Below, one piece after another: positions 1 through 64,000 of a stretch of 64,000 nt of DNA. The position numbers and the translations under genes are program-made. Under the pieces are notes generated by a model. The model saw only the letters and a list, made by a program, of their open reading frames with translations. It was not told the origin of the DNA and made no database searches. The first letter of the stretch is position 1. Each line of letters opens with the position of its first letter. Origin of the DNA: Methanobacteriota archaeon (GTDB lineage: Archaea > Thermoplasmatota > E2 > DHVEG-1); NCBI GenBank assembly GCA_963769885.1, contig CAVYNH010000006.1:224001-288000 (forward strand). Direction: 5' to 3'.

Positions 1-689
1 GCGTCGCCGTCCGCGTCGAGGTCAGGGTTCGAGTTCTGGCCGTTGGACTGGTCAGGGGTTGGGTCCAAGCCGTCGGAGCAGAGGGTGATGATATTCTCGT
101 CGGCGTACCCGTAGACCTCGGTGAGGGTGATGTAGATGTTGGAAAGGTCGTCCCAGTATCGGATGTGGTTGTTGCTTGAGTCGTACCCGCCATTCATGAG
201 GATCACCCATCGGTTGTCACGGCCTGAGGTTGCGGGCGCGGTTCCAGGGTGCGTCTGGGGGCGGATGTTGCGTGCGGATAGGAAGCCCTGCATGAAGGGG
301 GTGTCGATGGCGTGGTAGTCCTTGAAATTCTCCGGCGGGCTGTTGGCGTCAAACACCGTAATCTTCGTTGTGGATGCTGAGTAGTAGACGTACTGGACGG
401 GGTGGAAGAGGTTCCGCTGTGGGGAGAGGTCGAGGTAGAGGACGTACCCGGGTCCAGGGACGTCATAGACGTGTTCTCTTGTTCCCATGATGCTGTCGCC
501 TTTGGAGACTGGTCCCCAGACGTAGGCGAGGATCTGGTCGTCCGTATGCGACAGTCGGGCGAGAATGGTATGGGCGACGGCCTGGACGTTGGGCTGCGCG
601 GCCACAGTGGGAAGGATGGCCGGGTAGGATGCCAGGAGCAGGGTGGCAGCTAAGAGTAGTGCGGTTGGGATTGTGTTCTTCTTCATCAT
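1..689 (-). CDS. Secreted peptidase C13/caspase-hemoglobinase-like protein (5' part, runs off the window)
   Basis: Manual translation from ATG at 689: signal peptide MMKKNTIPTALLLAATLLLAS, then NRWVILMNGGYDSSNNHIRYWDDLSNIYITL, resembling the C13 N-terminal motif; frame open to the window edge. Confidence 0.65.
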   Translation of the reverse strand, partial: MMKKNTIPTALLLAATLLLASYPAILPTVAAQPNVQAVAHTILARLSHTDDQILAYVWGPVSKGDSIMGTREHVYDVPGPGYVLYLDLSPQRNLFHPVQYVYYSASTTKITVFDANSPPENFKDYHAIDTPFMQGFLSARNIRPQTHPGTAPATSGRDNRWVILMNGGYDSSNNHIRYWDDLSNIYITLTEVYGYADENIITLCSDGLDPTPDQSNGQNSNPDLDADGD

Positions 690-951
690 CTAGGTTGAAC
701 CCCCTCGGTAAGAATCTAATGCCAAATCCTCTTAATTAATATATTGATTGTGATAATTATACTCTGCCTCGGCCTGGAGGGGAGAGGGGCTTCCCTTTGA
801 GGCAGGGGAAACGTCATGACGGGTACTCTGAAGGGGGGCGTTCTGGCTCGAAATTGATAGGATGAGGCATGGCCGCCGGCTTTGGTTATCTTTTTCACGG
901 CGTTATCTTTTTTAAGCTCATGGATGATTCATTTTATCGGATGCGAGTGCA

Positions 952-1380
952 ATGACGACGCCGTATACGCCCATTCTCTTGGTCGAGGACAACCCGTCTG
1001 ATGAGCAGCGGGTGCTGCAGGCCTTCGACCGCAACGACATGGCGCATCTCGTCCACGTCGCCAGGGACGGCGCCGAGGCGCTCGAGTACCTCTTCGGCGC
1101 GCAGGACGGCAGCATCCTGCGGACTCCACCGCCGCGGCTCATCCTCCTCGACCTGCGGCTCCCGCGGGTCCCTGGGCTTGAGGTCCTGCGACGGATCCGC
1201 GCGCACCCAGAAGGAAAAAACCTCTTCGTCATTGTCTTCACCGTCTCCCGCGAGGAACAGGACCGGGTCGAGGCGACGCGGCTAGGCGCGGACGCCTTCA
1301 TCAACAAACCCGTCGACCTCAGAGAATTCCCCAAGACCATGGAAAAAATCGGCCTGACCTGGCTGATCAGCACCCAATAA
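952..1380 (+). CDS. Single-domain response regulator (CheY-like receiver)
   Basis: ILLVEDN, LILLDLRLP (phosphoacceptor Asp), FINKPVD. Confidence 0.9.
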   Translation: MTTPYTPILLVEDNPSDEQRVLQAFDRNDMAHLVHVARDGAEALEYLFGAQDGSILRTPPPRLILLDLRLPRVPGLEVLRRIRAHPEGKNLFVIVFTVSREEQDRVEATRLGADAFINKPVDLREFPKTMEKIGLTWLISTQ

Positions 1381-1404
1381 ACCCGAACACAACGCCGATG
1401 GACG

Positions 1405-1695
1405 TCAGGACTGCTTCTTGATGAACGGCCAGACGTCCTCCGCCGTCTTCGCGTTATCCACCATGCTCCGGCGTTCCTTCCACCAGTCCGTCGCCTCGAT
1501 GTCCTGGCGGCACTTCTCCAACTTCTCCTTCGCCTGATTGATCTCCACGATCTTCTGCATCGAATGCAAGGTATACTCCATGTACACCATCACGTCGCAG
1601 AGCAGGTCCATGTCCGTGGCGAGCTCCGGGTTGATCATACTCCGGATCTCCTCGCCCACAAACTCAAGAGAAAACGCGGGGAACTTCTTACTCAT
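1405..1695 (-). CDS. Hypothetical protein
   Basis: 96-aa ORF MSKKFPAFSLEF... with host-like codon usage. Confidence 0.6.
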   Translation of the reverse strand: MSKKFPAFSLEFVGEEIRSMINPELATDMDLLCDVMVYMEYTLHSMQKIVEINQAKEKLEKCRQDIEATDWWKERRSMVDNAKTAEDVWPFIKKQS

Positions 1696-1799
1696 CAAAC
1701 CCATGCACGCAGACCTCCACCACACCTAACCACATCGTTCTATATAAGACCTCCCACAACCCCGAGAAAAACCTAATAACCACGCCATGAGATAGGAAC

Positions 1800-1875
1800 C
1801 CCGCATGATGAGCGAACCTTCGCTGAACAACCCCAACACTTCGTTGTGATGATGACGATCTTGAGTGCTGAATTC
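1800..1875 (+). ncRNA. Box C/D guide sRNA
   Basis: C box ATGATGA 1805-1811, guide GCGAACCTTCG, D' CTGA 1823-1826, C' ATGATGA 1849-1855, guide CGATCTTGAGTG, D CTGA 1868-1871; BRE/TATA-like GAAAAACCTAATAA upstream; T-rich tract downstream. Confidence 0.85.
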
Positions 1876-1894
1876 ATCATGCACTACTTTTCTT

Positions 1895-2342
1895 TTAGAT
1901 ATGCGGCGCCAGCATCTCCGCGACCTTCTCAAAAAAATGCCGATCCTCACCCGTGAACGCATCCACCATATCCGAATCCACATCGATCTCCCCAATCACC
2001 ACGCCCTCGCGGAAGATCGGCACCACGATCTCCGAGCGCGTCGACACAAAACACGACAGATACCGTAGGTCATGACGTACATCTGACACCACCTCCGTCT
2101 TCCCAGACTTCGCCGCCGCCCCACAAATCCCAATCCCCAACGGGATCCGCGTATGCTCCGTCGCCTGCGGCCCTACCCACGGGCCCAACACCAGCATCCC
2201 CTCCCGCACCACATACACCCCCACCCATGAGTACCTGGGGGAACCACCGTACCAACGCTGCCACCACGTCCCGGACTGCCTCCGGCTCATCACGCGTTAA
2301 TAACACCTGAATTTGGTTGATCGCCTCATCCCGCCTCACCAC
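1895..2342 (-). CDS. GAF-domain protein (free Met-R-sulfoxide reductase-like), with a +1 frameshift near 2235
   Basis: YSWVGVY, GIGICGAAA, YLSCFVSTRSEIVVPI, IGEIDVDS; the N-terminus (MVRRDEAINQ...RWFP) lies in another frame; the 448-nt span is one base over a multiple of 3. Confidence 0.8.
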
Positions 2343-2355
2343 ACATCCCTCCTCT

Positions 2356-3594
2356 TCATGCCTTAAACTCCAACAAGCTCGCCTGACGATCCCCTGGCAC
2401 CGCTACTGACGCTGCCTCTGGCTCTGCCTCAGTCGGCAGCTCAATCGAGCCGTACTGCCCGCCGCCTCCTGGGATAATCCGCACCTTATGCTCACGGAAC
2501 AGCTGGATCGCATCCGCAATCGCCGGCGACGTCACCCGCCGGATCCTCCCCAGGTCCCCATCAACCAGCACTGAAATCTCGTCCCCAAACTCCGTGATGA
2601 GCTCCTCCCAACGTCTCGAAACGGTCTGGCTGAACGGTGTCCGCTGCCCCACCGCCTTCGTGATGATCTCTGCCAACGGGATCAGATGAAGATACGGCGG
2701 CCGATGGTCCGGATGCAACGGCGCCTCACGGGTCGCAATCTGCGCGACCCGATCCCGCACCCCCTTCTTGATCCGCTTCCCGCAGCGGCAGCGCCACCGC
2801 CGTCGTTCTGCTTCCACCAGCGAATAGTGCGTGAAGCAAGAGATGCACGCGGACTCGTTGTACTTCCCCTCTTGCGGCGGCAGCCCGACGTTCAACACCG
2901 GACGATTCCCCCCGGTCCGCAGGATCGCCTTGCGCAGCTCCGCAAACGTCGCCTCACCCACCTCGAACCGCGTGAACTCCCGGGCGAGACGCACCGGGTG
3001 AGGACTATGACTATCCGAGTTCGTCAGGAACGTCAGCCGATGCAGCTCATCGATCGTGTCCGCATAATCCGTGTCCGCGCTCAACCCCAACTCAACAAAC
3101 GACACATACCCCGCAGCGTCCCCATAACAATCCGTCAGGCTGTCGTGGTATGCGTACATCGACGTCCACGGCGTGAAGGCATGCGCCGGCCCGATGAGCG
3201 CCTCCACGTCCTTGGCGAGTAACGCAAGCTCCGTGCCGCCTAGGGCAATGTTCGGCCGACCGTCCGTCTCCAGATTCTTCGAGAACCCTGAAACCCGCTC
3301 CTTGAACGTCTCTACCGTGGAGAGACTGGGGAAATACAAGAGGTGATGAACCCTGTGCATGTCCTCGACTTCTGTGCTGAGGACGAAACGGGTCCCGTTC
3401 CGCTCGAACGTCCCGTCGTCAATCCGTGTGCAGCTCCGAATCTGCTCAAGCCATCCCCCATGTAGGCAGTCGCCGGTCGCCACCATCTGGATGCCCTTCC
3501 GGGGCGCCTCACGCGACAACGTCTCCAGATCCATTGAGTCGCTCGTCGCCGCGGAATACCGGGAATGGATATGCAGGTCCGCGTTGATCAACAT
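2356..3594 (-). CDS. PHP-domain endonuclease Q family protein (TIGR00375-like)
   Basis: ADLHIHSRYS, PAHAFTPW, ELGLSAD, NSDSHS, GKY followed by a CxxC Zn ribbon, C-terminal PGGGGQYG. Confidence 0.85.
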   Translation of the reverse strand: MLINADLHIHSRYSAATSDSMDLETLSREAPRKGIQMVATGDCLHGGWLEQIRSCTRIDDGTFERNGTRFVLSTEVEDMHRVHHLLYFPSLSTVETFKERVSGFSKNLETDGRPNIALGGTELALLAKDVEALIGPAHAFTPWTSMYAYHDSLTDCYGDAAGYVSFVELGLSADTDYADTIDELHRLTFLTNSDSHSPHPVRLAREFTRFEVGEATFAELRKAILRTGGNRPVLNVGLPPQEGKYNESACISCFTHYSLVEAERRRWRCRCGKRIKKGVRDRVAQIATREAPLHPDHRPPYLHLIPLAEIITKAVGQRTPFSQTVSRRWEELITEFGDEISVLVDGDLGRIRRVTSPAIADAIQLFREHKVRIIPGGGGQYGSIELPTEAEPEAASVAVPGDRQASLLEFKA

Positions 3595-3604
3595 CAGGTC
3601 GCCC

Positions 3605-5362
3605 CTATGGCTTCGGCTTCTCAGGCTCCGTCGGGACCGCTGCCCGGCCTCGCGACGAGGGATGAGCATGCTCCTCGTAGAACGTGTCCTTCACCGCGAT
3701 CTCTACCATCCCGGCGATGAAGAAGATGATACTCGCGAAAACCAACAGGTAGACGCCCCAGCCCATCTGCCAGGACACCATCATCGTGCTGCCTGGGACG
3801 TCCGGCACGGCCATCGCTATCGACCCCTGGAACGGCGCCTGAGAAATCGCAGTCAACGTCTGTGCCATCGGCGCCTTCGCCTCAGACACAGTCACCGGCA
3901 CCAGCCCCGCAAGCTGCCCGAGGACCACCGTAAAGATCAAGATCAGGATGAGCGGGAACAACAGTCGGATTCCCCGGCCGACATACCGCACGCCGAGTTT
4001 CCGGCTCCGAGAGATTCCAATCGTCCCCAGAACCAGGAGCACCGTGCCAATCAACACGATGTAGGCGAAAGGCATGACCAGCGAACCCAGCGACACCGGC
4101 CCCTGCCCCGACGGGAAGGTCGCCTGCAGTCCATTGAACGCATCGATCGTCAACAGCTTATCAAGGACGATCTCCTGACCAGCCACCGAGAATCGACCCG
4201 AGACCGTGTACCAGGGGAAGAACACCGCCAGCACCGTGAGCACCAAACCAACGATGCACAGGATGTTACTGATACTGTGTATGTTCGCCCCATCGATATA
4301 CAGCATGGAGAAAATCCTCGGCCCGAGGCCTGTGCGACGATGGCGCCGCACGACAGCAACAGCCAAGAACAACAGGGCGACGAGCGTGAACAAGACCAAG
4401 AAGATTAAGAAATTATAGACGAACCATTCCGCGATGAACAACGGCTGCTGCGCCTGCAACAGATTCGCCCCCCAGGCGAGCGGGTCCTGCCACATCTGCC
4501 CGCCCTCACGGAACATCGGGCCCTCTGGCCCTGCTTCTCCGAGGAGCGCCGCCTGGACCGCATCAGATTGGTTGCCGCCGATCCAGCCCCAGTTCCCAGC
4601 ATACGAGAGCCACGACTGATTCTCCAAGACCGTGAGCGTATAGCCATCAGGCTGCAGCACCAGTCCGTTCGCCCCCACCGAATCAGACGCGACCCCCAGC
4701 TTCCCGGAGAACGACCGCAGATACGAGGCATGGCTGCCCCGGGCAATGTAGACCTTCATGTGGTCGCCCTCGTGCTCGACCAATGACCACGGCGCCCGCT
4801 GACCCTGATTATGCTGACTGTACATCACCTGTGACGGCACACCGCTTTGGACGACAACCTGTGCCATCTCCCAGTCCGCCTCATGGCGATTCAACTCACC
4901 GGGGTTGAAGACATAGAAGAACCAGTACTGGATGACGGTCCCCTGCGGAAGGGTGTCGACCCGGGCATAGACAGTGTAGCCCAGAAAAGCACGGTTGGCC
5001 TCATAGGCCTGCACAATACCATCGTCCGACACAGTCCCCAGCTGGTTATCCAGAAAATACTTCTGCGCAGAATTGTTATACGAGCCGAGCGACTCTGGCG
5101 ACGGCGAGGCGTTCACCAACACCGGCCCCGTGTCCGTCGACCGGTACAGCTGCGAATGCTGAACATAATACGCGACATCAACAGGATAACACGTCTCACC
5201 CTGCTCAAAATACAGGACCGGCGCAAACCGGCTCGCGAGAGCCTCGTCCTCCGTGGACGCTCCCAACGCCCCAGAAGCCCCAATAATCAGGATACCGATA
5301 AGCCCCAGAGATAGAACAATCGCTCTTCTTCTCACGCTAAACCACTCCCCACACCGTATCAA
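3605..5362 (-). CDS. Membrane protein with an extracellular Vps62/NPP1-like domain
   Basis: Signal peptide, FAPVLYF, QYWFFYVFN, HEADWE, YSQH, GSHASY, followed by about 5 TM segments. Confidence 0.7.
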   Translation of the reverse strand: MIRCGEWFSVRRRAIVLSLGLIGILIIGASGALGASTEDEALASRFAPVLYFEQGETCYPVDVAYYVQHSQLYRSTDTGPVLVNASPSPESLGSYNNSAQKYFLDNQLGTVSDDGIVQAYEANRAFLGYTVYARVDTLPQGTVIQYWFFYVFNPGELNRHEADWEMAQVVVQSGVPSQVMYSQHNQGQRAPWSLVEHEGDHMKVYIARGSHASYLRSFSGKLGVASDSVGANGLVLQPDGYTLTVLENQSWLSYAGNWGWIGGNQSDAVQAALLGEAGPEGPMFREGGQMWQDPLAWGANLLQAQQPLFIAEWFVYNFLIFLVLFTLVALLFLAVAVVRRHRRTGLGPRIFSMLYIDGANIHSISNILCIVGLVLTVLAVFFPWYTVSGRFSVAGQEIVLDKLLTIDAFNGLQATFPSGQGPVSLGSLVMPFAYIVLIGTVLLVLGTIGISRSRKLGVRYVGRGIRLLFPLILILIFTVVLGQLAGLVPVTVSEAKAPMAQTLTAISQAPFQGSIAMAVPDVPGSTMMVSWQMGWGVYLLVFASIIFFIAGMVEIAVKDTFYEEHAHPSSRGRAAVPTEPEKPKP

Positions 5363-5413
5363 AAAAGGATATCATCTCGCGGCTTTTCAACCCTTCGAAG
5401 GAGACAGGGGGGT

Positions 5414-5833
5414 CTACACGGGTAGCTGCGCCGGCGAAATCCGACTGATCGACACCTCAGTCGCCAGCCCCGACTGCATCAGCGTACGGCGGATCTCCTC
5501 ATCCGGGAACGGACAGCGCGACCGGTCCGCGATGATATGCCACCGCGCCGCCTTCCCACGAGCAAAACTCTTCGACTCCGTCATAATCAGATCCAGGTTC
5601 ATCTTCGCGATCACGCTCGCCGCCTTCGCAAGACTGCCCGGCGCATCCGAAAACTCCACCTCGATCCGAATCAAATTCGCCGGCTGACCAGCGATCGGAC
5701 TGAGCACCAACGCATTGATCTTCTCGTCAAGACTCAGCAATAATTCATCGCCATCCTTCAACTGCAACGCCTCGCGAAACTCCGTCGGAATCACGAGCCT
5801 ACCGCGGTTATCAATCCTCAGAATCGTATTCAT
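5414..5833 (-). CDS. AbrB/MazE/SpoVT DNA-binding plus ACT-domain regulator
   Basis: RIDNRGRLVIPTEFREALQLKDGDEL; DAPGSLAKAASVIAKMNLDL. Confidence 0.8.
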   Translation of the reverse strand: MNTILRIDNRGRLVIPTEFREALQLKDGDELLLSLDEKINALVLSPIAGQPANLIRIEVEFSDAPGSLAKAASVIAKMNLDLIMTESKSFARGKAARWHIIADRSRCPFPDEEIRRTLMQSGLATEVSISRISPAQLPV

Positions 5834-6026
5834 CACAAACCCCCCAATGGGAACACTGTGGGCATCGCCGCCAGAGTATATAAACATACCCACAAAAAAC
5901 AGGAGAAAAACCACCCTAAAAACCATAACCTTTATTAGCCATGGAATCATATGAGTTCTCCGAGAAAAACACGACGGGAGCATGGGATGTCCTAGCTACA
6001 AAACAACCATCGCAGATACTCCATAG

Positions 6027-9267
<3,241 letters not shown>

Positions 9268-9287
9268 ACCAGTTTTGAGGAGACACC

Positions 9288-12167: not shown

Positions 12168-12270
12168 ACGGTATGACTCGGGACGGCGGCTTCTGGTTTT
12201 GGGCCTGGCACCGTCTTTTTTGGTGCCTGGTCGAATACATCTGAGTCAGTCCTTATAAACCTCCCGCGAG

Positions 12271-50530: not shown

Positions 50531-50740
50531 TTAAAGTTTTCCTCCTGCTCTGAAGATCGCATCCATCAGAAGAGATTCTTCTTTTCTCAATCCATCCATG
50601 AATTTCTCATACCGTTCTATCTCTTCCTTACTTGATCTAGGTTTGGCCTTATTGAATAGGTCTTCCATTAGCTGAATGAGAGCTTGGCAGGCAGCTAAAT
50701 CTTTCTTCAGTTGTTCAACATCTGCTATTCGATAAACCAT
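50531..50740 (-). CDS. Small helical hypothetical protein
   Basis: 69-aa ORF with coiled-coil character. Confidence 0.5.
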   Translation of the reverse strand: MVYRIADVEQLKKDLAACQALIQLMEDLFNKAKPRSSKEEIERYEKFMDGLRKEESLLMDAIFRAGGKL

Positions 50741-50912
50741 ATCTGGAGTTAAATCGGATAAAGAGATTTAGTTTTTCTTATTGGTTACTTCCCTAGAAAG
50801 GTTCTCTACTCTTAAATTTTCTTAACATTCGTTGCAATAAAATTCATATCAAAATATTTATATGAATGTAAAGAATAGCAATTCCAGACTAATCACAGGG
50901 GAAGAGGAAAAA

Positions 50913-52829: not shown

Positions 52830-53020
52830 GGAAACCTATCTCCCCCTATCTTTCTTTTTTTCTTTTTATATATGCTTTTAACCCTTAGCTATTGGATAAA
52901 CTATTTCCTTCTCATTTTTCCAATAAAATAGGTTGAATTTCCCGATAGTGTTTTTCAATGTTTTTCTCCATATGAATCCTCGTTCCTTCTCATTTTTTTA
53001 CCTTAGCAAGTACTGTCATC

Positions 53021-54103
53021 GGCGCACCAAACGAGGAAACCGCGCTCTCCATCCTGCCAGCTCACAAGCTTCTCCTCAAAGGACGCGGCTACCATGCCCT
53101 CAGCCTCGCGGTCCTCGGCGGCATCGGCGCCATGCTCCTCTGCCTCGGCCTCCTCCTCCCGATGCGGTTCATCATCGGGCCACCCCTCAACCTCTACACC
53201 GCCCTCAGAAGCATCATGGTCTGGGTCCTCCTCGCCGTCGTCGCCATCATGATTGGCACCGAAAAATGCCGCATCGCCGAACTCGGCACGAAAGGAAAAC
53301 TCCCCGCCGCGGCCGGCATGCTCTTCGCCCTCCTCGTCTTCCTCCTCTCCGGCATCTTCGGCCTCATCATCTTCAACATGACCCCGCAGTCCCCCATCGG
53401 ACTACCCGCCCCCGTCCTCTTCCCCGCCTTCGTCGGACTCTTCGGCCTACCGACGCTGCTCGCATCGCTGGCGACCAGACCCGCCATCCCTCCTCAAAAC
53501 CTCGAGCCGCTCACCCTCAACCGCATCGATCGGAAAGCCTCAGGCCTCTCCGTCGCAACCGGCAGCCTCGCCGGCATCTTCGTCTCCCTGATTCCCGGGC
53601 TGACGACCGCGACCGGCACCGTCATTGCCATGAACGCCCGCCCCCGCGCCAGCCCTGAACAGACCATCATCACCCTCTCCGCGGTCAGCGCCTCCTCATC
53701 GTTCTTCGTCATCATCGTGCTCTTCCTCACCCAACGGGCGCGTAGCGGCGTCACAATTACGATTTCGGCGCTACAGCCCGCCGAGCTATGGTCTTCCCTC
53801 CTCCCGCCGCAGTTCCTCGTTTACCTCTTGATTTTTCTTATCGTCAGCGGCTCTATTTCCTATTTCACCGCTTTGTCCTTGGGTCGCTGGTTCGCCAAGA
53901 ACTTCTCTCGCATCCCCTATGTTCCCCTCGTCGTCTTCACCATTGCGTTCATCGTCTCGCTGGTGATCCTTTTCACCGGTCTGCTCGGCATCATGATCTT
54001 GGGGGTGGCGGCATGTCTTGGGTTCCTCCCGTTGACGTGGGGCGTCCGCCGCAGTCAATGTATGGGAGTGCTCCTCATCCCGATTATTCTGTACTTTCTC
54101 TAA
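53021..54103 (+). pseudogene. TctA-like permease, 3' part
   Basis: GAPNEETALSILPAHKLLLKGRG...LFPAFVGLFGLP...RSG...VRRSQCMG; in frame with 41749-42006 (446 aa when rejoined). Confidence 0.9.
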
Positions 54104-54127: not shown

Positions 54128-54604
54128 TTATTTTTTCTTGTCGAGGAGCGTAGCCTCTATTGCTTCGTAGAACCCCGAGATATCGCAGTTATGGTGCCGT
54201 GCCACCCATAATGCCGCCACCTCGGGAATGACGCTTTTTTCGTCGGCGAGCATGGCGACCTCGGCGGCGATCGCGGTCTGGGGCAAATCGACCTCGTGAC
54301 TGATTTGTGCGACGATCTGGTCGAGAAGCGAGCGGGGCATCGATGCAGGCTTCGCCAGTTTCTTTTTCGGTGTGAACCCTGAGGGGATTATGATAGTGGT
54401 GACGTCGAAGGCCGGCGAAAGACCGTTGTCCGTGGGGATGAGAAGGTTGTCTTTGATGGCCTCGTGGACGAAGGCTTGGGCGTCGCCGGTCGTCATCCAG
54501 CCGAGGTCCATGGAGAGGGAGAGGTACAGCTCGGATTCGGTCAGGACCGTTTTGCCGCTACGGTGGTAGAGGAAGGCGATGATGATGTGGCGTTCGGTCG
54601 TCAT
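54128..54604 (-). CDS. DUF2240-like protein
   Basis: IIAFLYHRSGK..L.ESELYLSLSMDLGWM, IP.GF.P. Confidence 0.75.
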   Translation of the reverse strand: MTTERHIIIAFLYHRSGKTVLTESELYLSLSMDLGWMTTGDAQAFVHEAIKDNLLIPTDNGLSPAFDVTTIIIPSGFTPKKKLAKPASMPRSLLDQIVAQISHEVDLPQTAIAAEVAMLADEKSVIPEVAALWVARHHNCDISGFYEAIEATLLDKKK

Positions 54605-55122
54605 GAGGTGGCCTCTGATGCGAGGAAGGTGGAAAGGTCGATGAAGGCCGCGGTGTAAGCGGGGTCGTCTTGTATTGGGATGGTGGGGTCGAGTACGAGG
54701 AGGTAACGGGGGCGTTGGGTATGGCTGAGGGGGACGGTGGCGGTGGTGGTGTTGGGGATGATGAGGCCGGTGATGTGGGGTGGGATGGGGGTGTCGGGGT
54801 GGTCGTAGTAGAGGTAGAGGGGGCAGTCGGTGATGGCGGTGAGGTCGGTGGTGTCGAGGTCTGGCCAGTGGGTGGGGCGGAGGATGAGGGTGGTGGCGCC
54901 TGCCATGATGAGGTCGACGGTGTCGTCGAGGGTGCGGGGGCCGGCGTCGATCCAGAGGTCGGTGTGGGTGGTGAGGCGTTGGTAGGTGTTGTAGTGGGGG
55001 CGGTTGGTGGTGAGGCCGTCGTCGTCGATGAGGTAGAGGGGGTGGTCTTGGGGGATGGTTTTGATGAGGTCGCGGGTGGTGAGGTGTTGGTGGGTGAGGC
55101 GGAGGTAGGGGTGGTGGTCCAT
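54601..55122 (-). CDS. Divergent, truncated HisA/HisF-like protein
   Basis: LYLIDDDGL, LWIDAGPRTLDDTVDLIMAGA. Confidence 0.55.
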   Translation of the reverse strand: MDHHPYLRLTHQHLTTRDLIKTIPQDHPLYLIDDDGLTTNRPHYNTYQRLTTHTDLWIDAGPRTLDDTVDLIMAGATTLILRPTHWPDLDTTDLTAITDCPLYLYYDHPDTPIPPHITGLIIPNTTTATVPLSHTQRPRYLLVLDPTIPIQDDPAYTAAFIDLSTFLASEATS

Positions 55123-55196
55123 GGTGTGTTGGGGGGTGTGAGGGGGTGGTGGGTTTATAGGGTTTTGCGCAAGGGTTATAAATCGGGTGTGGTGTT

Positions 55197-55502
55197 ATGA
55201 GCAGTGGTGGTTTTCTGATGAAGGCGCGTCTGATAGTGTGTCTGTTGATGGTTGGGCTGGTGTTGCCTGGTGTGGTGTGTGTGTCAGCTGGTCCTCCGGT
55301 GCCGGCGCGGACGCATATTATTAAGGCGGTGTATTATGTGCGGCATACGGTGCTGGATCCGAGTGTCGTGATGGAGTGGTATTATAGTCCGGAGACGCAT
55401 ACGTTTAAGTGGAATCGGGGGGCGTTTGTGCGGTATGACAGTTATACGAATTATTTCGGGTTTGGGGGGAAGTGGATCGAGTTGTATTTCTATTATAAGT
55501 GA
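55197..55502 (+). CDS. Small secreted hypothetical protein
   Basis: Signal-peptide-like MKARLIVCLLMVGLVLPG; TATA-like GGTTATAAA upstream. Confidence 0.55.
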   Translation: MSSGGFLMKARLIVCLLMVGLVLPGVVCVSAGPPVPARTHIIKAVYYVRHTVLDPSVVMEWYYSPETHTFKWNRGAFVRYDSYTNYFGFGGKWIELYFYYK

Positions 55503-55554
55503 GTAGAAAATAGAAGGAGTGGTGGGCGGGGGGTGTCCCCGTCCTTTTTTTTGT

Positions 55555-57957
55555 TTATTGGTTGAGTTTGCGTTCGGTGTCGGCGATGCGGAGGCGTGTT
55601 TTGATGACGGTGTCGGGGTTGAGGCTGATGCTGTCGATGCCGCATTCGACGAGGAAGGCGGCGAATTCGGGGAAGTCGCTGGGTCCTTGGCCGCAGATGC
55701 CGACTTTGCGTCGTGGCTGGTGGGTGTGGGCGGTGGTGATGAGTTGGCTGATGAGGCGTTTGACGGCGTCGTTGCGTTCGTCGAAGAGGTGGGCGACGAG
55801 GTCGCTGTCTCTGTCGAGGCCGAGGGTGAGTTGGGTGAGGTCGTTGCTGCCGATGCTGAAGCCGTCGAAGACGTCGGAGAATTGGTCGGCGACGACGACG
55901 TTGCTGGGGATTTCGGCCATGACGTAGACTTGGAGTTCGTTTTCGCCTTGTTTAAGTCCGTTATTGTTCATGATGGTGATAACTTTGCGGCCTTCCTCCG
56001 GGGTGCGGCAGAAGGGGACCATGGGTTTGATGTTAGTGAGGCCCATCTCGTTTCTGGCTTTCTTGAGGGCTTTGCATTCGAGTTCGAAGGCGGGCTGGAA
56101 TTTTTTGTCGTAGTAGCGGCTGGCGCCGCGCCAGCCGATCATGGGGTTGTGTTCGTGGGGCTCGTACATGTAACCGCCGACGAGGTTGGCGTATTCGTTG
56201 GTCTTGAAGTCGGAGAGTCGTACGATGACGTCGTTGGGGTAGAAGGCGGCGGCGATACGGCCGATGCCGTAGGCGAGGGTGTCGACGTAGAACTGGACTT
56301 TGTCTTTGTAGTGGGGGCTGCGGTTGTCGATGTCTTTGATGACGCCGGCGATTTTTTGGTCGGTTTTGGCTTTTTTCTTGAGCTTGTCGTAGTCGAGGAG
56401 GGCGAGGGGGTGGATGCCGATGTGGGAGTTGATGATGAATTCTTCTCTGGCGAGGCCGACGCCTTGGTTGGGGATTTGGGCTTGGGTGAAGGCTTGTTCG
56501 GGGACGCCGACGTTCATCATGATTTGGGTGCGGGTCTTGGGGAGGTTGTCGAGTTTGAGTTCGTCGACGTGGAATTTGAGGAGGTCGTCGTAGATGCGGC
56601 CGACGCCTTCGGAGCAGTCGACGGTGACGTTCTGGCCGGGTTTGATGAGTTCGGTGCCGGTGCCAGTGCCGATGACGCAGGGGATGCCGAGCTCGCGGCT
56701 GATGATAGCGGCGTGGCAGGTGCGGCCGCCGCGGTTGGTGACGATGGCGCCCGCGATCTTCATGATGGGCTCCCAGTCGGGGTCGGTCATGTCCGTGACT
56801 AGCACCTGGCCTTTCTGGAATTTGCTGATGTCTTTGGCGTCGCGGATGATGTTGGTCTGGCCTTGGCCGATCTTCGAACCTACCGCTTCGCCTTCGACGA
56901 TGATTTTCCCTTTTTTGTCGAGGACGTAGGTGCGCATCACGGCGGCGCTCTTGCGGCTGTGGACGGTCTCGGGTCGGGCTTGGACGATGTAGAGTTCTTT
57001 GGTCTTGCCGTCCTTGGCCCATTCGATGTCCATGGGTTTCCTGTAGTGTTCTTCGATGATGATGGCCCATTGGGCGAGCTTGATGATTTCGTCGTCGTTG
57101 ATGACGTATTTATTGCGGTCTTCGGCGGTGACTTTTTCTTGTTTGGTGCCGGTCTTGCTATAGATGAGTTTTTTGTCTTTGCTGCCGAGTTTTTTGTCGA
57201 TGACGGCCTTGTAGCCCTTCTTGAGGGTAGGCTTGAAGACGTAGAACTGGTCGGGGTTGACGGCGCCTTGGACGACGTTTTCGCCGAGGCCGTAGGCGCC
57301 GGTGACGTAGACGACGCCTTCGAAGCCGGTGTCGGTGTCCAGGGTGAACATGACGCCGCTACAGGCGAGGTCGCTGCGGACCATCTTTTGGACGCCGACG
57401 CTGAGGTAGACGCTGAAGTGGTCGAAGCCTTTGTCGACCCTATAGGAGATGGCGCGGTTGGTGAAGAGGCTGGCGAAGCAGTCGCGGACTTTTTCGATGA
57501 GTTCGTCTTCGCCGCGGACGTTGAGGTAGGTCTCCTGTTGGCCGGCGAAGCTGGCGTCGGGGAGGTCTTCGGCGGTGGCGCTGCTGCGGACGGCGACGTC
57601 GACGTTCTCGCCGTATTTGAATTCCATCTCGCGGTAGTGTTTGCGGATGTCTTCCTCTAGCTCTGGGGGGATCGGGGTGTTTTTGATGAGTTCACGGATT
57701 TTTTTACCGCGTTCGGCGATGTTGTTGACGTCGTGGGTGTTGAGGTCGGAGAGGATCTCTTTGATCTTGTCTTGGATGCCGGCTTTTTCAATCATGTATT
57801 TGTAGGCGTAGGCGGTGATGGCGAAGCCGCCAGGGACTTGGACGCCTTTTGGAGTAAGGCTGCGGATCATCTCGCCGAGGCTTGCGTTTTTGCCGCCGAC
57901 GGAGGGGACGTCGTTAATGGTCAGGTCTTCGAACCATTTCACGAATTCTTGGATCAT
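55555..57957 (-). CDS. ppsA: Phosphoenolpyruvate synthase
   Basis: VGGKNASLGEM, AVRSSATAEDLPDASFAGQ, GGRTCHAAI, SIGSNDLTQL, GICGQ. Confidence 0.97.
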   Translation of the reverse strand: MIQEFVKWFEDLTINDVPSVGGKNASLGEMIRSLTPKGVQVPGGFAITAYAYKYMIEKAGIQDKIKEILSDLNTHDVNNIAERGKKIRELIKNTPIPPELEEDIRKHYREMEFKYGENVDVAVRSSATAEDLPDASFAGQQETYLNVRGEDELIEKVRDCFASLFTNRAISYRVDKGFDHFSVYLSVGVQKMVRSDLACSGVMFTLDTDTGFEGVVYVTGAYGLGENVVQGAVNPDQFYVFKPTLKKGYKAVIDKKLGSKDKKLIYSKTGTKQEKVTAEDRNKYVINDDEIIKLAQWAIIIEEHYRKPMDIEWAKDGKTKELYIVQARPETVHSRKSAAVMRTYVLDKKGKIIVEGEAVGSKIGQGQTNIIRDAKDISKFQKGQVLVTDMTDPDWEPIMKIAGAIVTNRGGRTCHAAIISRELGIPCVIGTGTGTELIKPGQNVTVDCSEGVGRIYDDLLKFHVDELKLDNLPKTRTQIMMNVGVPEQAFTQAQIPNQGVGLAREEFIINSHIGIHPLALLDYDKLKKKAKTDQKIAGVIKDIDNRSPHYKDKVQFYVDTLAYGIGRIAAAFYPNDVIVRLSDFKTNEYANLVGGYMYEPHEHNPMIGWRGASRYYDKKFQPAFELECKALKKARNEMGLTNIKPMVPFCRTPEEGRKVITIMNNNGLKQGENELQVYVMAEIPSNVVVADQFSDVFDGFSIGSNDLTQLTLGLDRDSDLVAHLFDERNDAVKRLISQLITTAHTHQPRRKVGICGQGPSDFPEFAAFLVECGIDSISLNPDTVIKTRLRIADTERKLNQ

Positions 57958-58148
57958 TGAAGTCTGTCCTTTCATGAGGGGTGGTTATTACACACCTCTT
58001 TATTAAAGCTGTTTTTAAGTGAAAACCTTCAAGAGGCGACCGGCTTCCCTGGAGGCATGCCTTGGTCTGTTTGGGGAGGGGGGAAACCAGTCCAATCAAA
58101 TGAGATGCCCTGGTGGGGATTGAGTACAGGGCACAAGTGTCGGGTGTC

Positions 58149-58731: not shown

Positions 58732-59856
58732 CTATCCTGACACCCCGGACTTCGCCTCGTCCTTTTCCTCGTCCTCGGCCTGGTCCGTATCCTCAAGCCC
58801 CGCAGTCTTGATCGACCGCTGCTTCTTCAACAGCTCCTTCATCTGCTGCTGGATGTCCACCTGCTCCTTGCCGAATACCTCATCCGCAGGCTTATCATCA
58901 GCCTCCGCGACCTGCGGCTTCGGATGACGCGCTTTGACGGTCCGCGGCTCCGGTTCCTCCTCCTCTTCGACTTCTTCTTCGACCGCCGCGGGTTTCCGCG
59001 CACGCCCGTTCGTCTGCTTCTTCAGCAGATCCCGCATCTGCTTCTGGATGTCGACCTGCTGGCGCTGAAACTCGACCTGCTCCTTCTGGTACGGCGTGAT
59101 GTCGGTGCCCTGATGATGTTCGTTGACGACCTTCAAAATCTCCTTGAACGGATAGACCCCGAACAGCTCATAGAAACTCCGCGACCGCGGGACAGTCGCG
59201 TCCTTTCCGCCCCCAGCGAACCCGAAGAGCTTGATCCGCGAGCCGCCCCCCACCCCGCCGCCTGCGAACGTCTTGTCGTTGCCGAGACCCAATCCGGACT
59301 CACTCACAGGGATAATCGTGCCAAACCCGATGATTTGCCCCAGAACCCCCTGCTCCGTGTTGAACTCCGTAATCTTATCGTAGCGGATTGCCCGCGACCG
59401 CTTCGTCAGCACCCCGCCCGTGAAGACCAGCCGCTGGTTCGTAATAAAGTACCGATGCGACCGACGATACACCTCAACGCAGAGAAACCCAATGATCGAT
59501 GCCGTAACGGAGTAGAGCGGGATGAACAGCGCCGAGGACGACAGCCAATTCTGCCACAGGAGAACCGCCACCGCGCCGATGAAGATGGCGAGGTACAGGA
59601 AGAAAATGCTCCATCGGATTGCCACGAGCGCGATGATTACACCCACCAGCAGCAATACCAGTCCCCAAAGGATGATTGGGAACCATGCATTACTCATCAA
59701 CACGGTGTTGAACTGAGAGGCGTTCACCAGCCACCACACAACCACGCCCCACACAATCAGGAAGATGCACACGGACTGCAGCTTCATGAAAGAAAGCGGA
59801 TGCGGCGAGAGAACCGATTCAATCTTCTCACCTTTGTTCAGGTCTATGCTCTGCAT
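58732..59856 (-). CDS. Membrane protein with a bacterial PH (bPH_2) domain
   Basis: 4 TM segments, YFITNQRLVFTGGVL, QGVLGQIIGFGTI. Confidence 0.8.
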   Translation of the reverse strand: MQSIDLNKGEKIESVLSPHPLSFMKLQSVCIFLIVWGVVVWWLVNASQFNTVLMSNAWFPIILWGLVLLLVGVIIALVAIRWSIFFLYLAIFIGAVAVLLWQNWLSSSALFIPLYSVTASIIGFLCVEVYRRSHRYFITNQRLVFTGGVLTKRSRAIRYDKITEFNTEQGVLGQIIGFGTIIPVSESGLGLGNDKTFAGGGVGGGSRIKLFGFAGGGKDATVPRSRSFYELFGVYPFKEILKVVNEHHQGTDITPYQKEQVEFQRQQVDIQKQMRDLLKKQTNGRARKPAAVEEEVEEEEEPEPRTVKARHPKPQVAEADDKPADEVFGKEQVDIQQQMKELLKKQRSIKTAGLEDTDQAEDEEKDEAKSGVSG

Positions 59857-59935
59857 CGGGATCCCTCCGCTGTTCCCATCGCTGACGAGGCTTTAAAGGT
59901 ATTGGTCCCCCCGTCTCTCAACCGACCAAAAATAG

Positions 59936-61915
59936 TTACGACTGTTTGACGCCAACGACAAAGATGGCCAATGCGAACGCCGTCGCCGTCACTGTCACCT
60001 CATTGGCCCGCACGGTGATTGTAATTGAGCCAAAACCAACGATGAAGTCCCTCGCGGTGTACCACTTACCGGCAGGGATCATCCTCGAGCCGTTTCGATA
60101 CATCCCCATAAACAACAAGTCGCCCTTCACCGAGATGTTCCACTGCGCCTCCATCGCCACCTCGCCATCGTTCACAATCGTCGCAACCACACCGAACGAC
60201 GGCCGGTTCTTAATCGTAATCGATAACGGATACCGGATCTTGAAGGACTTCGACTTCGCGGTCTCCACATTCCCCGCATAATCGACCGAGAAATAGGAGA
60301 CCGTATGGTTCCCAAACCCTGAGACGTTGAAGGGTGAATGATAGAGTTGATACGTTCCGTCATCGACCTTGACCATGGTGCAGTTCACACCGGACATATC
60401 ATCGATAGCGGTCAGAGTGACCGTGACGTTCGTCGTATACTCCCCCGTGACCAGGGTACCATTAAGCGCAATCGAGGTGACCGGCGGCGTCGTATCCACC
60501 AGTTCATAGACCACGGCAACAAACGCATCGTACCCGCCGCGGCTCGTCAAGGTGATATTACCAAAAACGGCGACCGTCGAAAAGAGTCCAGCAACGTGAA
60601 TCCAGTCATTGGCCTCGACGGCCACACCGAAGCCCATATCGAAGGCATCGCTCCCCGCTCGCGAGGCCCACCGCCAGGACCCGCCCGAACTGAGCTTCGC
60701 CACAAACACGTCGGATGAGCCAACGCTCGTCAGCAGGATGCCCCCAAAGCCTATCGTGTCTTGGAACTGCCCGCTGATGACGGCGTTCCCAGACGAGTCG
60801 ACGGCCACACTCCTAGCCTGGTCGTTCGACCCTGATCCTCCTGCACTCACCGCCCATAACCAGCTGCCATTCGCGGCGATCTTCGCGACGAAAGCATCAT
60901 CACCTCCGAGACTAGTGATGTTGGCGTTCCCAAACGACGCGGTAAGTTCGAAACTGCCGACAACGAAGGCCTGCCCGGCCGCATCAAGCGAGAACCCATA
61001 AGGAGAATCGAAGGAGGCTCCTCCTCCGCGTGAAGCCCATTGCCAGCCGCCGCTCGTATTCAAGCAGGCGACAAAAACATCATAAGTCCCGGTGAGCGTG
61101 ATATTCCCAAGCGTCATCGAGCCATCGAAACTACCGAGAACGTACACCGCAGTGGTATCAACAGCGATGTCGACGCCCTCGTCATCGGAAGTTCCATTCC
61201 CGGCCACCGCCCATTGCCATTGACCGTCGGCGCTGATTTTCGCGACGTACACCTCAGGATCAATCGAGGTAGTCAATATCGTGCCGCCGAAAATCGCACT
61301 CCCACGGAACCCTCCGGTGATGTACATATTACCTGCTCCATCGATAGCAATACTGCGTCCAGAATCCTCATTTGTGCCTCCTGCACTGATCGCCCATTGC
61401 CAGAGCCCCTGATTGGTGAGTTTAGCGATGAAGACATCATACGAACCATGGCTGATGAGTTGAAATCCTCCGAAGGTCGCAGTCCCTGCAAATGCCCCAA
61501 CGACGTAGAGGGTACCATCAGTATCAACGACGATGCCCTCGCCTGCATCCTGACCGACTCCACCTGCGCTAACCGCCCATTCCCAGAAACCGAACGCATT
61601 CATCTTCGCGATGACGACGTCCTCGGCTCCCTTGCTGGTAAGGTTGATTTTCCCAAAGGTCGCGGAGTCCTGGAACACGCCGGTGACGTAGGAGTTCCCA
61701 CTGGTATCGATTGCGATTCTGAAGAACCCCTCATCGCCTCCCCCGCCCCCTTGAGCCACCCATCGCCAGACAGCATTCGGCGGAGAATCGCTCGGGGACG
61801 GTAAGAGAAACGGATTCTCCTTCGAATTTTGATTCGAACCTGGAACACTGCCAGTCCCAGTCGTAAGCAGAATTAATGTACAGGCTACGGCAATGATCCC
61901 CCGGGTTCGGTTCAT
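59936..61915 (-). CDS. Secreted SBBP-repeat beta-propeller protein with an Ig-like domain and a lineage-type C-terminal domain
   Basis: Repeats of D..GN.YV.G.F...DVFVAK...G.W.WA..AGG; DTTPPVT...GNHTVSYFSVDYAGNVE; IVGFGSITITV. Confidence 0.85.
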   Translation of the reverse strand: MNRTRGIIAVACTLILLTTGTGSVPGSNQNSKENPFLLPSPSDSPPNAVWRWVAQGGGGGDEGFFRIAIDTSGNSYVTGVFQDSATFGKINLTSKGAEDVVIAKMNAFGFWEWAVSAGGVGQDAGEGIVVDTDGTLYVVGAFAGTATFGGFQLISHGSYDVFIAKLTNQGLWQWAISAGGTNEDSGRSIAIDGAGNMYITGGFRGSAIFGGTILTTSIDPEVYVAKISADGQWQWAVAGNGTSDDEGVDIAVDTTAVYVLGSFDGSMTLGNITLTGTYDVFVACLNTSGGWQWASRGGGASFDSPYGFSLDAAGQAFVVGSFELTASFGNANITSLGGDDAFVAKIAANGSWLWAVSAGGSGSNDQARSVAVDSSGNAVISGQFQDTIGFGGILLTSVGSSDVFVAKLSSGGSWRWASRAGSDAFDMGFGVAVEANDWIHVAGLFSTVAVFGNITLTSRGGYDAFVAVVYELVDTTPPVTSIALNGTLVTGEYTTNVTVTLTAIDDMSGVNCTMVKVDDGTYQLYHSPFNVSGFGNHTVSYFSVDYAGNVETAKSKSFKIRYPLSITIKNRPSFGVVATIVNDGEVAMEAQWNISVKGDLLFMGMYRNGSRMIPAGKWYTARDFIVGFGSITITVRANEVTVTATAFALAIFVVGVKQS

Positions 61916-62070
61916 CGAAGTTCCCTGTTTTCAATAAAATATACTATAATATTTAAATATTGGCATATATAAACAAATCGCCCCGCATTTATACTGGTAG
62001 TCCAGGGAAGAAAGAATCATTTCATCCCTCTTCTTTCGAAGGAATGGACCTTTTTTCTATGCACGACAAC

Positions 62071-63135
62071 CTAGCATGTCGCAGCCCGGTGTGGACTAGT
62101 CTTCCATTTCAAGAGGCAGATCGTAACCGCCAGGGTGACGCCGAGCATCCCGAACAAGCTGGCGCCCTCCGCGTTCTCCACCGGAACGACGAAGAACAAC
62201 AGACGGAACCCCACATAGCCAAGAACCATGGACAAGAAGGGAAAGACCCGATACCGCGCCTTGATCTCATCAAGCGTCCGCAAGAACACCAGCAGAACAA
62301 AGGTCAGCAACAAAGCGAGGATCGCCAGCAAGGCGACCCACCCGAAAACTGTGACCACATCCAAGAACCAGGGTGCCCCGGCAAGGAATGAGGCAGCAGC
62401 GAGGATGTAGATGACCATAAAAACGTAGATCAAATACCGCGGCCGATCGAGGAACAAAACCTTGATGTTCCCTAGATTCGAAGAGAAGGTGATGTGCTCC
62501 TTGCGCCGTTCCCCCCGGTAACTCGGCCTGATGCCAAGGCCACAGAACAACAGGAGAACCAAGAACCCAATATGCAGCGGGTTGAAAAGGTCAAGATGCT
62601 CAAGGAATGCGACGAAGGATTGTGCAAAGCCAAACAGCGCCGTCCCAAACGACACCGCCTGACCCTGAATCGTAAACGCACTCGGCAGGATGGTGTACCC
62701 AGAGCGAAAAACGAAATAGCCGGCGAGCAGAAGCAGCCCCGCCGGGATCAAGAACGGGCCGAGAAAGAGGATGCTTTCAGCGATCCATTTGAGAGCGCCT
62801 GTCCTGGCGCGCTTCGGCTTGACCGCCCCCTCGTTGATGCTGAGACGGAACTCAGCCACACCGCTATTCGTAACCGTGTACCCAAGCCATTCGCAGAGCA
62901 TCTGGAACAGGATGCCGACAAAATTCGTGAACCGGATGAGCGGCTCATGCCGACGCCGCAGCGAAAACAAGAAGTGCTTCTGCGCCTCGATCACCAAAAG
63001 CTGAACGAGCCACAGCCCAAACACCGCCAGGACCAGGAAAAAGGGAACAACGATGAACGTGACGACATCAACAGCGGAAACCACGGTCGCATCCCACTCC
63101 CCGTAGCAGGCAATACCTATAAAAACCTGTTCCAC
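62071..63135 (-). CDS. Multi-pass membrane hypothetical protein
   Basis: About 8 hydrophobic segments; start codon uncertain. Confidence 0.6.
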   Translation of the reverse strand: MEQVFIGIACYGEWDATVVSAVDVVTFIVVPFFLVLAVFGLWLVQLLVIEAQKHFLFSLRRRHEPLIRFTNFVGILFQMLCEWLGYTVTNSGVAEFRLSINEGAVKPKRARTGALKWIAESILFLGPFLIPAGLLLLAGYFVFRSGYTILPSAFTIQGQAVSFGTALFGFAQSFVAFLEHLDLFNPLHIGFLVLLLFCGLGIRPSYRGERRKEHITFSSNLGNIKVLFLDRPRYLIYVFMVIYILAAASFLAGAPWFLDVVTVFGWVALLAILALLLTFVLLVFLRTLDEIKARYRVFPFLSMVLGYVGFRLLFFVVPVENAEGASLFGMLGVTLAVTICLLKWKTSPHRAATC

Positions 63136-63157
63136 GCCCCAGCAACGCCGACGCGCC

Positions 63158-63577
63158 TTATTTCACCCTAACGTCCAGCACCCGCCCCTCATGGTCGAAC
63201 GCCCGCCACGACGCCCGCCCCGCCGCACTCACCCCCACAATCAGATGCACCCGCCCGAAATGCCCGAACAAATCCAAATCAGCATCCGACGGGCGAGTAA
63301 TCGACGACGGATGGCTGTGTACCGTGCCGACGACACTGTAGTCGATTGGCAGCATGTACAGCTTGAAGATCGCATGCGAGTCCCCCGAGATCGTCCCCGG
63401 CAGCAGCACCACCTCGGTGATTGTCGTCTTCTCCTCTTCATCCACCCGCAACAGCGCCCCGAACTCCTTGGGATACGACGACCGTGAGCTCGCCACAATC
63501 AACTCCAGACACCGCTTCGTGATGTACCACTGCCGCGGCGCAGGCCGCTCCTTCGGCTGACAACCAAACCACCCCAC
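63158..63577 (-). CDS. JAMM/MPN+ metalloprotease
   Basis: PKEFGALL, GTVHSHPS...PSDADL. Confidence 0.9.
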   Translation of the reverse strand: MGWFGCQPKERPAPRQWYITKRCLELIVASSRSSYPKEFGALLRVDEEEKTTITEVVLLPGTISGDSHAIFKLYMLPIDYSVVGTVHSHPSSITRPSDADLDLFGHFGRVHLIVGVSAAGRASWRAFDHEGRVLDVRVK

Positions 63578-63582
63578 GGCAA

Positions 63583-64000
63583 TTACCTCATCAGCTTCAA
63601 ACGGACCATCTGATAAAAACTCTCCCCAAACCGGATGAACTTCGCGGTCCGCTCCGACCCCGTGATCACGATTTCGTTCCTCGACGACACCGGCTCCGTA
63701 TACCGCCCGTCAATCACCAGCATCGAATCCTTACTCTTCGGAAGCACACTAATCCGAATCGACCGATCCAGCGGGATGATCCATGGCCGAGCCGACAGCT
63801 TGAACGCGGCCAGCGGCGCCAAAATCATCGCATGCACCGCCGGATCCATGATCGGCCCACCCACCGACAGCGAATAACTCGTCGACCCCGTCGGCGTCGC
63901 CACAATCACCCCATCCGCCCCCATCGACTCCACCAGCTCACCATCAACAAAACACTTCAAATACAGTATCTTGGCGATCCGCGCCGTCTGAATCGTCACC
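63583..64000 (-). CDS. nadK: NAD kinase, C-terminal part
   Basis: ADGVIVATPTGSTSYSLSVGGP, IDG. Confidence 0.9.
   Translation of the reverse strand, partial: VTIQTARIAKILYLKCFVDGELVESMGADGVIVATPTGSTSYSLSVGGPIMDPAVHAMILAPLAAFKLSARPWIIPLDRSIRISVLPKSKDSMLVIDGRYTEPVSSRNEIVITGSERTAKFIRFGESFYQMVRLKLMR

Follow-up and report, generated by a model that had tools for sequence, protein, structure and literature searches.

The subject of this study is a 64,000-nucleotide stretch of the chromosome of a Methanobacteriota archaeon (G000:C6:224001-288000, hereafter the window), which holds the replication origin oriC beside cdc6 as well as gyrB, gyrA, topA, aglB, cdc48 and ppsA, and along which the + strand alternates between blocks rich in G and T and blocks rich in C and A. 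We found that this pattern reflects a DNA-level strand-asymmetric substitution bias, through which keto bases (G, T) give way to amino bases (A, C) on one strand. Its polarity is set by position, in domains of about 5 kb median length, and the polarity map is inherited within the genus.

Genes and skew blocks of the window

The genome, G000, is a metagenome-derived assembly of 2.09 Mb in 7 contigs, and the public runs containing the stretch are wetland and freshwater-sediment metagenomes. For comparison we used the sister species G001, which belongs to the same genus, is syntenic and shares 73-84% DNA identity with G000. Genes were called with our own codon-periodicity caller (1,512 genes, 79% coding), which agrees with Pfam inside the window, where gene strands were checked with Pfam and with tblastn against relatives; elsewhere in the genome, Pfam confirmed 17 of 20 sampled G-rich genes. 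A sense strand is called C-rich when its GC skew at fourfold-degenerate sites lies below -0.3 and G-rich when it lies above +0.3. A switch in the sign of the skew is of the start type when the C-rich strands are directed away from it and of the end type when they are arranged in the opposite way; switches were called at |skew| 0.4 in 600-bp windows, thresholds that are arbitrary. The features are the following, with strands and open reading frames (ORFs) given where they apply.

1..900: + strand G/T-rich block; C-rich sense strand in the minus-strand gene that ends at 689
950..14230: + strand C/A-rich block spanning genes on both strands; GAF, Vps62-like and MazE-like genes (minus) with G-rich sense, gyrB, gyrA and an aminotransferase gene (plus) with C-rich sense
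7400..8400, plus: gyrB intein; third-position skew ~0 within a strongly skewed host gene
11700..12167, plus: gyrA 3' end; third-position skew turns to +0.7 inside the gene
14261..17721, minus: + strand G/T-rich block; aminotransferase gene and topA, C-rich sense, fourfold C 0.73-0.75
17501..18251: sharp start-type switch in the divergent topA/purE spacer; C-rich strands directed away
17798..22506: + strand C/A-rich block; purE-guaA (plus, C-rich sense), crossing the convergent point at 19.83 kb; in its right part (minus) an unnamed ORF, ubiX, GGGPS and IMPase with G-rich sense and a peak skew of -1.0 at 21-22 kb
22251..23201, minus: gradual end-type switch inside the amidohydrolase gene 22499-23809, the start overlapping the IMPase gene end
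23793..29632, minus: + strand G/T-rich block; AMMECR1, aglB/STT3 and PRPP synthetase genes, C-rich sense, fourfold C 0.79-0.82
31397..33622, plus: extreme C/A-rich block; conserved ORF of 741 aa, fourfold C 0.84, Thr 21%
35150..37630: + strand G/T-rich block left of oriC; PTH2 (plus) with G-rich sense, NucS and Orc1/Cdc6 (minus) with C-rich sense
37631..38379: oriC, a start-type switch; AT-rich stretch (about 37776-37820) flanked by ORB boxes (37742-37756, 37900-37914)
38380..41756: + strand C/A-rich block right of oriC; cdc48 (minus) with G-rich sense, most at the N-terminus
41115..41756, plus: ORF with third-position C of 0.85 (fourfold-like) and Thr 30%; its divergent spacer with cdc48 shows no flip
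42000..53000: low-GC island, 31-47% GC, without skew; absent from the syntenic G001 contig
53132..54103, plus: C/A-rich block; TctA, C-rich sense strand
54128..57975: + strand G/T-rich block; DUF2240 gene, ORF 54601-55122 and ppsA (minus), fourfold C up to 0.88
55197..55502, plus: small ORF embedded in the block 54128..57975, G-rich sense
58732..64000, minus only: + strand C/A-rich block; bPH, JAB and other genes, weakly to strongly G-rich sense, following ppsA on the same strand

The GC skew of the + strand, computed per 1-kb window, has its minimum of -0.67 at 32-33 kb and its maximum of +0.46 at 15-16 and 55-56 kb; the AT skew has the opposite sign, and the blocks are those that the original prediction had placed by eye. 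Per gene, |fourfold GC skew| averages 0.53, whereas sampling alone would give ~0.07. That minus-strand genes of both polarities exist was borne out with verified strands: the window has 27 native minus-strand genes, 12 of them C-rich and 11 G-rich in sense. The first group includes topA, aglB, cdc6 and ppsA (fourfold C 0.75-0.88), the second GAF, ubiX, GGGPS and IMPase (fourfold G 69-78%), and the N-terminus of cdc48 is likewise G/T-rich in sense. The compositions of G-rich and C-rich genes mirror each other, and in GGGPS the fourfold sites are G 0.78, C 0.04, T 0.15 and A 0.03.

At the peaks the proteins themselves have drifted, towards Thr, Pro and His in one direction and Val and Gly in the other, as had been claimed: Thr makes up 21% of the product of ORF 31397-33622, 30% of that of ORF 41115-41756 (the true frame, by third-position GC content and by its match in G001) and 17% of that of ORF 54601-55122, and Val, Gly, Phe, Trp and Cys together make up 28% of GGGPS. 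Foreign DNA does lack the skew, which is about zero in the gyrB intein and absent from the island at 42-53 kb, and low-GC genes are weakly skewed genome-wide (|skew| 0.17, against 0.53 in native genes).

Several structural features of these genes were recorded in addition. The 11-kb island sits between cdc48/ORF 41115 and tctA and is probably an integrated mobile element. The frame of gyrB (6051-9267) breaks within the intein: ORF 6051-8552 ends, and ORF 8557-9267 continues in another frame with the C-terminal intein block, the Toprim domain and the GyrB C-terminus; a frameshift, a misassembly or a split gene could lie behind this. AglB/STT3 (24473-28687, 1404 aa) is fused to about four CarboxypepD_reg/SdrD-like repeats of the immunoglobulin type. 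The spacer between the aminotransferase gene and topA (15487-15709) is swapped in contigs of two other runs, which skip 221 bases and carry 191 others instead; it is a strain-variable intergenic segment.

Skew and gene direction

The original prediction held that the skew does not follow gene direction, and this stands in part. Orientation is not the full explanation, with an R2 for + strand skew of 0.22 in the window, 0.26 over genes and 0.36 over 250-bp bins. Full independence fails: C-rich sense strands outnumber G-rich ones genome-wide (58% and 17% of genes; mean sense-strand fourfold GC skew -0.30, standard deviation 0.52), and sign flips are far commoner at orientation switches. The correlation between skew polarity and gene direction is r = -0.5 to -0.6. 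Where adjacent genes are strongly skewed and lie on opposite strands, the + strand sign persists in 37 pairs and flips in 18, and same-strand neighbours keep it in 173 pairs and flip it in 3; divergent arrangements account for 65 of the 125 pairs without a flip. The downstream ends of gene runs hold most of the G-rich regions (43 versus 17), and the meta-profile along runs displays only a modest relaxation of the skew in the last 1-2 kb. The distribution of skews is broad with a dip at zero, and about half of all 600-bp windows are skewed, including single-copy housekeeping genes and spacers. The idea that position sets polarity more than gene direction does is therefore partly supported, and gene direction still matters.

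A substitution bias at the DNA level

Evidence that the skew is not just codon bias comes from several directions. Intergenic spacers follow their flanks (r = 0.78, n = 362), and 45 divergent spacers have a GC skew of +0.39 or -0.32, matching the flanks. Codon positions 1 and 2 shift along with the skew, and so do the amino acids. The sign also changes smoothly inside genes, as in the amidohydrolase gene (22.5-23.8 kb), at the 3' end of gyrA and at the N-terminus of cdc48. At fourfold sites, the context of neighbouring bases was found to have weak effects only. The clearest case is a co-directional ribosomal-protein cluster elsewhere in the genome (C4:271.8-288.3 kb), along which third-position skew goes from -0.83 through ~0 to -0.84 and then +0.86. 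At fourfold sites L3, L6, L32e and L19e are 77-85% C, and L30 and S2 are 56-76% G, the extremes being L3 (85% C) and S2 (76% G). Because these genes are equally expressed and co-directional and yet in opposite states, translational selection and simple sense transcription are ruled out as explanations.

The substitutions were polarised with AT-rich outgroups, using amino-acid-changing substitutions in 49 genes. On the G000 tip, keto>amino and amino>keto changes stand at 84:59 in genes with C-rich sense and at 13:37 in genes with G-rich sense (odds ratio 4.05, p = 7e-5). The bias holds for transversions alone (odds ratio 6.9, p = 0.002) and for transitions alone (3.05, p = 0.014). The odds ratio on the genus stem is 1.8 (p = 0.018), and on the G001 tip the polarised spectrum is not significant; from these three values it follows that the process is recent and strongest in G000. 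The comparison of orthologue spectra thus gives keto>amino change on the C-rich strand, by both transitions and transversions. Together with the spacers, the codon positions and the map of G001 described below, it upholds the original proposal of a positionally fixed, strand-asymmetric mutational process.

Domains, switches and the replication origin

Across the 2.1 Mb we counted ~170 strong switches, with a median domain of 5.3 kb, so that the alternative of a single genome-wide switch at oriC is not what is seen. The + strand skew is negatively autocorrelated at 5.5 kb (-0.29) and positively at 13.5 kb (about +0.09); for the orientation of genes by itself the value is +0.04, and 200 shuffles of the gene skews never fell below -0.05. 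The alternation is intrinsic to the skew.

The two types of switch behave differently, in agreement with the idea of site-anchored starts. Inside co-directional runs, start-type switches lie at gene boundaries in 12 of 17 cases (at divergent pairs, in 38 of 46), and end-type switches do so in 8 of 43, the other 35 being intragenic (p = 2e-4 versus the start type). The start type is the narrower of the two as well (p = 8e-4). New in this analysis are the alternation, the asymmetry of the two types and the polarised spectrum.

The flip at oriC is real. Two ORB boxes (37742 and 37900) lie around an AT-rich stretch beside cdc6, and this is the only ORB pair (TTCSAGTGGAAA) in the genome (37.7-37.9 kb); a search for the motif at other switches returned scattered single near-matches only. 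There are two Cdc6-type matches in the genome, one of them beside oriC, amounting to one or two Orc1/Cdc6 loci. The origin is a start-type switch, and the oppositely oriented PTH2 and cdc48 take the polarity directed away from the site on both sides. At the replichore scale, the keto skew, accumulated along contig C6, passes through a shallow minimum at 240-320 kb, with oriC at 261.8 kb and a slope of ~0.02; after correction for orientation, a replichore-scale component was looked for and not found. This keto skew is a separate, ordinary, weak and minor layer, and the local polarity at oriC is opposite to its trend. With a sole ORB pair, two Cdc6-type matches and such a weak ordinary replichore skew, the suggestion of many dispersed origins of the Orc1/Cdc6 type is not supported.

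Beside the origin, nucS directly adjoins orc1/cdc6 and oriC (35505-37630). To the right of oriC (G000:C6 ~262-470 kb), genes are mostly on the minus strand, that is, head-on to forks; the bias to the left is milder and also head-on. Such an arrangement would be unusual if this oriC is the main origin.

Relatives and repair genes

The sister species G001 has the same sign map at lower amplitude, the correlation being r = 0.87 for 47 genes and, within the ribosomal cluster, r = 0.90, an agreement that partly reflects shared ancestry (fourfold identity 57%). At this identity the fourfold sites are near saturation, and the net flux between the two genomes (G>C, A>C and T>C) does not represent elementary steps. 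On a third GC-rich contig, from a metagenome, IMPase is G-rich as well. The AT-rich genera of the family (GC 30-43%) show weak skews and uncorrelated maps, with G008 as a partial exception (r = 0.38, p = 0.014). Since G001 has the same map and the third contig the same G-rich IMPase, and the AT-rich genera are weakly skewed, the strong mosaic is a trait of the GC-rich genus. A metagenome scan with an IMPase query found no near-identical strains, just an 81% relative and AT-rich kin. Contigs assembled independently from other samples match the stretch at 90-99% identity, and the reads of four DNA runs that fall on the window come from a strain ~3-4% diverged (about 690 differing sites, as a pooled spectrum).

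Repair genes were surveyed in the same family. NucS_C is present in G000, in G001 and in 13 of 18 family genomes; no family genome searched gave a match to MutS_V or to a Y-family polymerase. A repair gene distinguishing the GC-rich genus was looked for and no difference appeared, NucS, EndoV and UDG being present in GC-rich and AT-rich genera alike. NucS without detectable MutS is not sufficient for the mosaic, because AT-rich kin without a strong mosaic have it too, and a genus-specific factor is needed.

Two genes of the window have histories of their own. GGGPS (20944-21690) is missing at the syntenic site of G001, which has a 46%-identical copy on another contig, and the topA-GGGPS synteny is kept in other genera. 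The protein of the pyruvoyl-dependent arginine decarboxylase gene (58149-58694), which has a weak skew, is 99% identical to the G001 copy, the neighbours being at 67-90%, and this gene may have been exchanged recently between the two species.

Proposed mechanism and rival explanations

The explanation that we find best overall, to which we give a probability of roughly 45%, is that polar tracts issue from fixed intergenic sites and have diffuse ends. The starts of tracts would be discrete intergenic sites, namely oriC and many promoter regions; from there the tracts would extend outward over a few kilobases, across any genes, and then end diffusely, at stochastic points. Within a tract, the strand running 5'->3' in the direction of travel would become C/A-rich through the loss of G and T. 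Most tracts would run with the genes, which would make the sense strand usually C-rich, and a tract overrunning opposite or further genes would leave those G/T-rich.

As to the agent, repeated resynthesis of one DNA strand from those sites (strand-displacement or long-patch repair synthesis, possibly transcript-primed) is the likeliest candidate, though one that we hold possible and doubtful. NucS cleaves only G/T, G/G and T/T mismatches (PMC6159521). An A or C misinserted opposite A or C would then escape it, and the resynthesised strand would drift from keto to amino; the errors invisible to NucS would be exactly the four keto>amino changes on the newly made strand. This blindness would produce the drift by both transitions and transversions, and the displaced single strand, if damaged, would add to the same drift. 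Recurrent one-strand resynthesis from fixed sites would thereby account for the observed sign, both classes of change and the shape of the tracts. In more general terms, we tentatively suggest that archaea of several lineages may carry out an undescribed, site-started, kilobase-long transaction on one DNA strand that writes a heritable polarity map, which would be either transcript- or primase-primed strand-displacement resynthesis or a recurrent exposure of single strands. Human TOP1 cleavage complexes are reported to track the absolute CA-GT skew with rho = 0.61 (2026 preprint, 10.64898/2026.09.30.755763), and a link of topoisomerase nicking to this type of skew may be a possible lead.

A number of observations weigh against polar tracts or against their proposed agent. 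The divergent point near 6.0 kb shows no flip, and some divergent promoters, this one among them, lack a start. The amplitude is often highest in the middle of a domain and not beside the start site, and end-type switches have no preference for midpoints between starts. AT-rich sister genera with the same set of NucS, EndoV and UDG have only weak skews. The agent itself we infer from sign, shape and spectrum only, and an almost identical spectrum is expected if a single strand is exposed and damaged. That spectrum comes from a few hundred substitutions in 49 genes, at sites under selection, and all gene-based counts depend on our own gene caller with its 79% coding.

Among the rivals, the one that survives best, and that we still consider unlikely, is that the skew is a product of transcription: the strand matching the dominant RNA in sense would become C/A-rich, and G-rich genes would be those dominated by read-through or antisense RNA. 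R-loops, which form best with G-rich RNA, may add to this by exposing the G-rich strand to amino-to-keto damage in a self-reinforcing way. The excess of C-rich sense strands (58% versus 17%) is as this rival expects, and so is the location of start-type switches at promoter-bearing boundaries with end-type switches inside genes, as with a leaky termination of RNA polymerase. G-rich regions at the downstream ends of runs (43 versus 17, and the meta-profile), small embedded opposite genes (PTH2, ORF 55197) that adopt the polarity of the surrounding operon, and the broad distribution with a dip at zero would all fit, and a G-dependent threshold for R-loops would predict the weak skew of AT-rich kin and low-GC islands. 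However, antisense transcription would have to exceed sense transcription at L30 and S2, the 65 divergent pairs among the 125 without a flip are out of reach of read-through from the partner, and divergent, largely untranscribed spacers are skewed. The sign is also opposite to that of known transcription-associated mutation, and the alternation at 5.5 kb is not predicted from gene orientation.

A very unlikely rival makes the skew a map of fork polarity, written by many dispersed replication starts that are independent of origins (e.g., recombination-dependent replication). An alternating, dipole-like landscape with arms of ~5 kb, sharp starts and diffuse ends resembling initiation and termination zones, and an oriC that is itself a start-type switch are what it would lead one to expect. 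Against this, the ORB pair occurs solely at cdc6, with two Cdc6-type matches in the genome, the weak normal replichore keto skew near oriC indicates ordinary long-range forks, and the polarity at oriC is opposite to the replichore trend. In addition, end-type switches are not near the midpoints between starts, and ~170 or more switches in 2.1 Mb would require hundreds of initiation zones.

Selection on codon usage or on messenger RNA, in the form of two codon dialects, unstructured C/A-rich messengers or avoidance of oligo-T terminators, is highly improbable. It would agree with a sense strand that is mostly C/A-rich and T-poor and with the conservation of each gene's class in G001, but other genera of the family do not keep the class, the G-rich composition mirrors the C-rich one and equally expressed ribosomal genes are in opposite states. 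The skew of non-coding spacers and the smooth sign changes within genes largely refute it. Finally, the genome is a 7-contig metagenome-derived assembly, and chimeras, strand-specific sequencing damage or patches from donors with another codon usage might be suspected, a negligible prospect given that proteins are intact with strong Pfam matches, clearly foreign DNA is what lacks the skew, an inversion cannot alter sense-strand skew, and a chimeric or artefactual origin is refuted by independent assemblies, both the contigs from other samples at 90-99% identity and G001 and the third metagenome contig, which have the same polarity.

Significance

Archaeal skews have been attributed to gene orientation, and strand-specific mutation has been denied (PMC12999951; bioRxiv 10.1101/2023.11.15.567178). 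The present genome contradicts the published view that archaea lack such mutation. A polarity map at the kilobase scale, only partly explained by gene direction, has reshaped its proteins, with Thr up to 30%. The pattern misleads gene finders as well as detectors of codon usage and horizontal transfer, yields long spurious antisense ORFs and biases phylogenies. To our knowledge, the asymmetry at fourfold sites and in spacers is among the strongest outside organelles. If polar tracts are the right reading, sequence alone would locate the start sites of an unknown DNA transaction, and the narrow mismatch range of NucS would be tied to genome composition; if that transaction acts on one strand, the skew map would let one read off the start sites of these events and the distances that they cover.

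Comparison with known systems

In bacteria, replication makes the leading strand G/T-rich. The asymmetry described here is likewise a mutational one between keto and amino bases, visible at fourfold and non-coding sites, and a weak version of the bacterial pattern is present near oriC. The mosaic is nevertheless 20-40x stronger locally, changes sign about every 5 kb, is not tied to replichores and has the opposite polarity at oriC.

Transcription-associated mutation, known from enterobacteria, consists of C>T changes on the non-transcribed strand. The likeness lies in the correlation of polarity with gene direction and in the starts at promoter-bearing boundaries. Here the sign is reversed, the sense strand losing G and T, orientation explains 22-36% of the variance, and the skew passes through genes of opposite orientation, through divergent spacers and through one half of a cluster of ribosomal-protein genes.

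Eukaryotic skew N-domains and fork-polarity profiles share with the mosaic discrete starts, diffuse ends and a negative lobe of the autocorrelation. They extend over 100 kb to megabases, whereas the present domains are measured in kilobases and have a far higher amplitude, and the many origins and midpoint ends of N-domains are not found here.

GRINS are repeated elements of polyketide synthase and similar multi-module genes and have a reported link with gene conversion. Both systems show intense local nucleotide skews that recode proteins, and the present skew differs in affecting single-copy genes (topA, gyrA, ribosomal proteins) and spacers.

In APOBEC kataegis, somatic, one-off and strand-coordinated clusters of mutations arise on resected ends in a TC context. 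They resemble the tracts in being of kilobase scale, strand-coordinated and polar from a break or start site; the mosaic is instead an evolutionary steady state without a strong sequence context.

Comparable in magnitude and type is the asymmetry of vertebrate mitochondria, in which one strand is nearly free of G at fourfold sites, ND6, a gene on the opposite strand, mirrors that composition, and proteins drift. That heavy/light asymmetry has a single polarity graded from the origin, in contrast to the hundreds of alternating domains carried by this 2-Mb chromosome.

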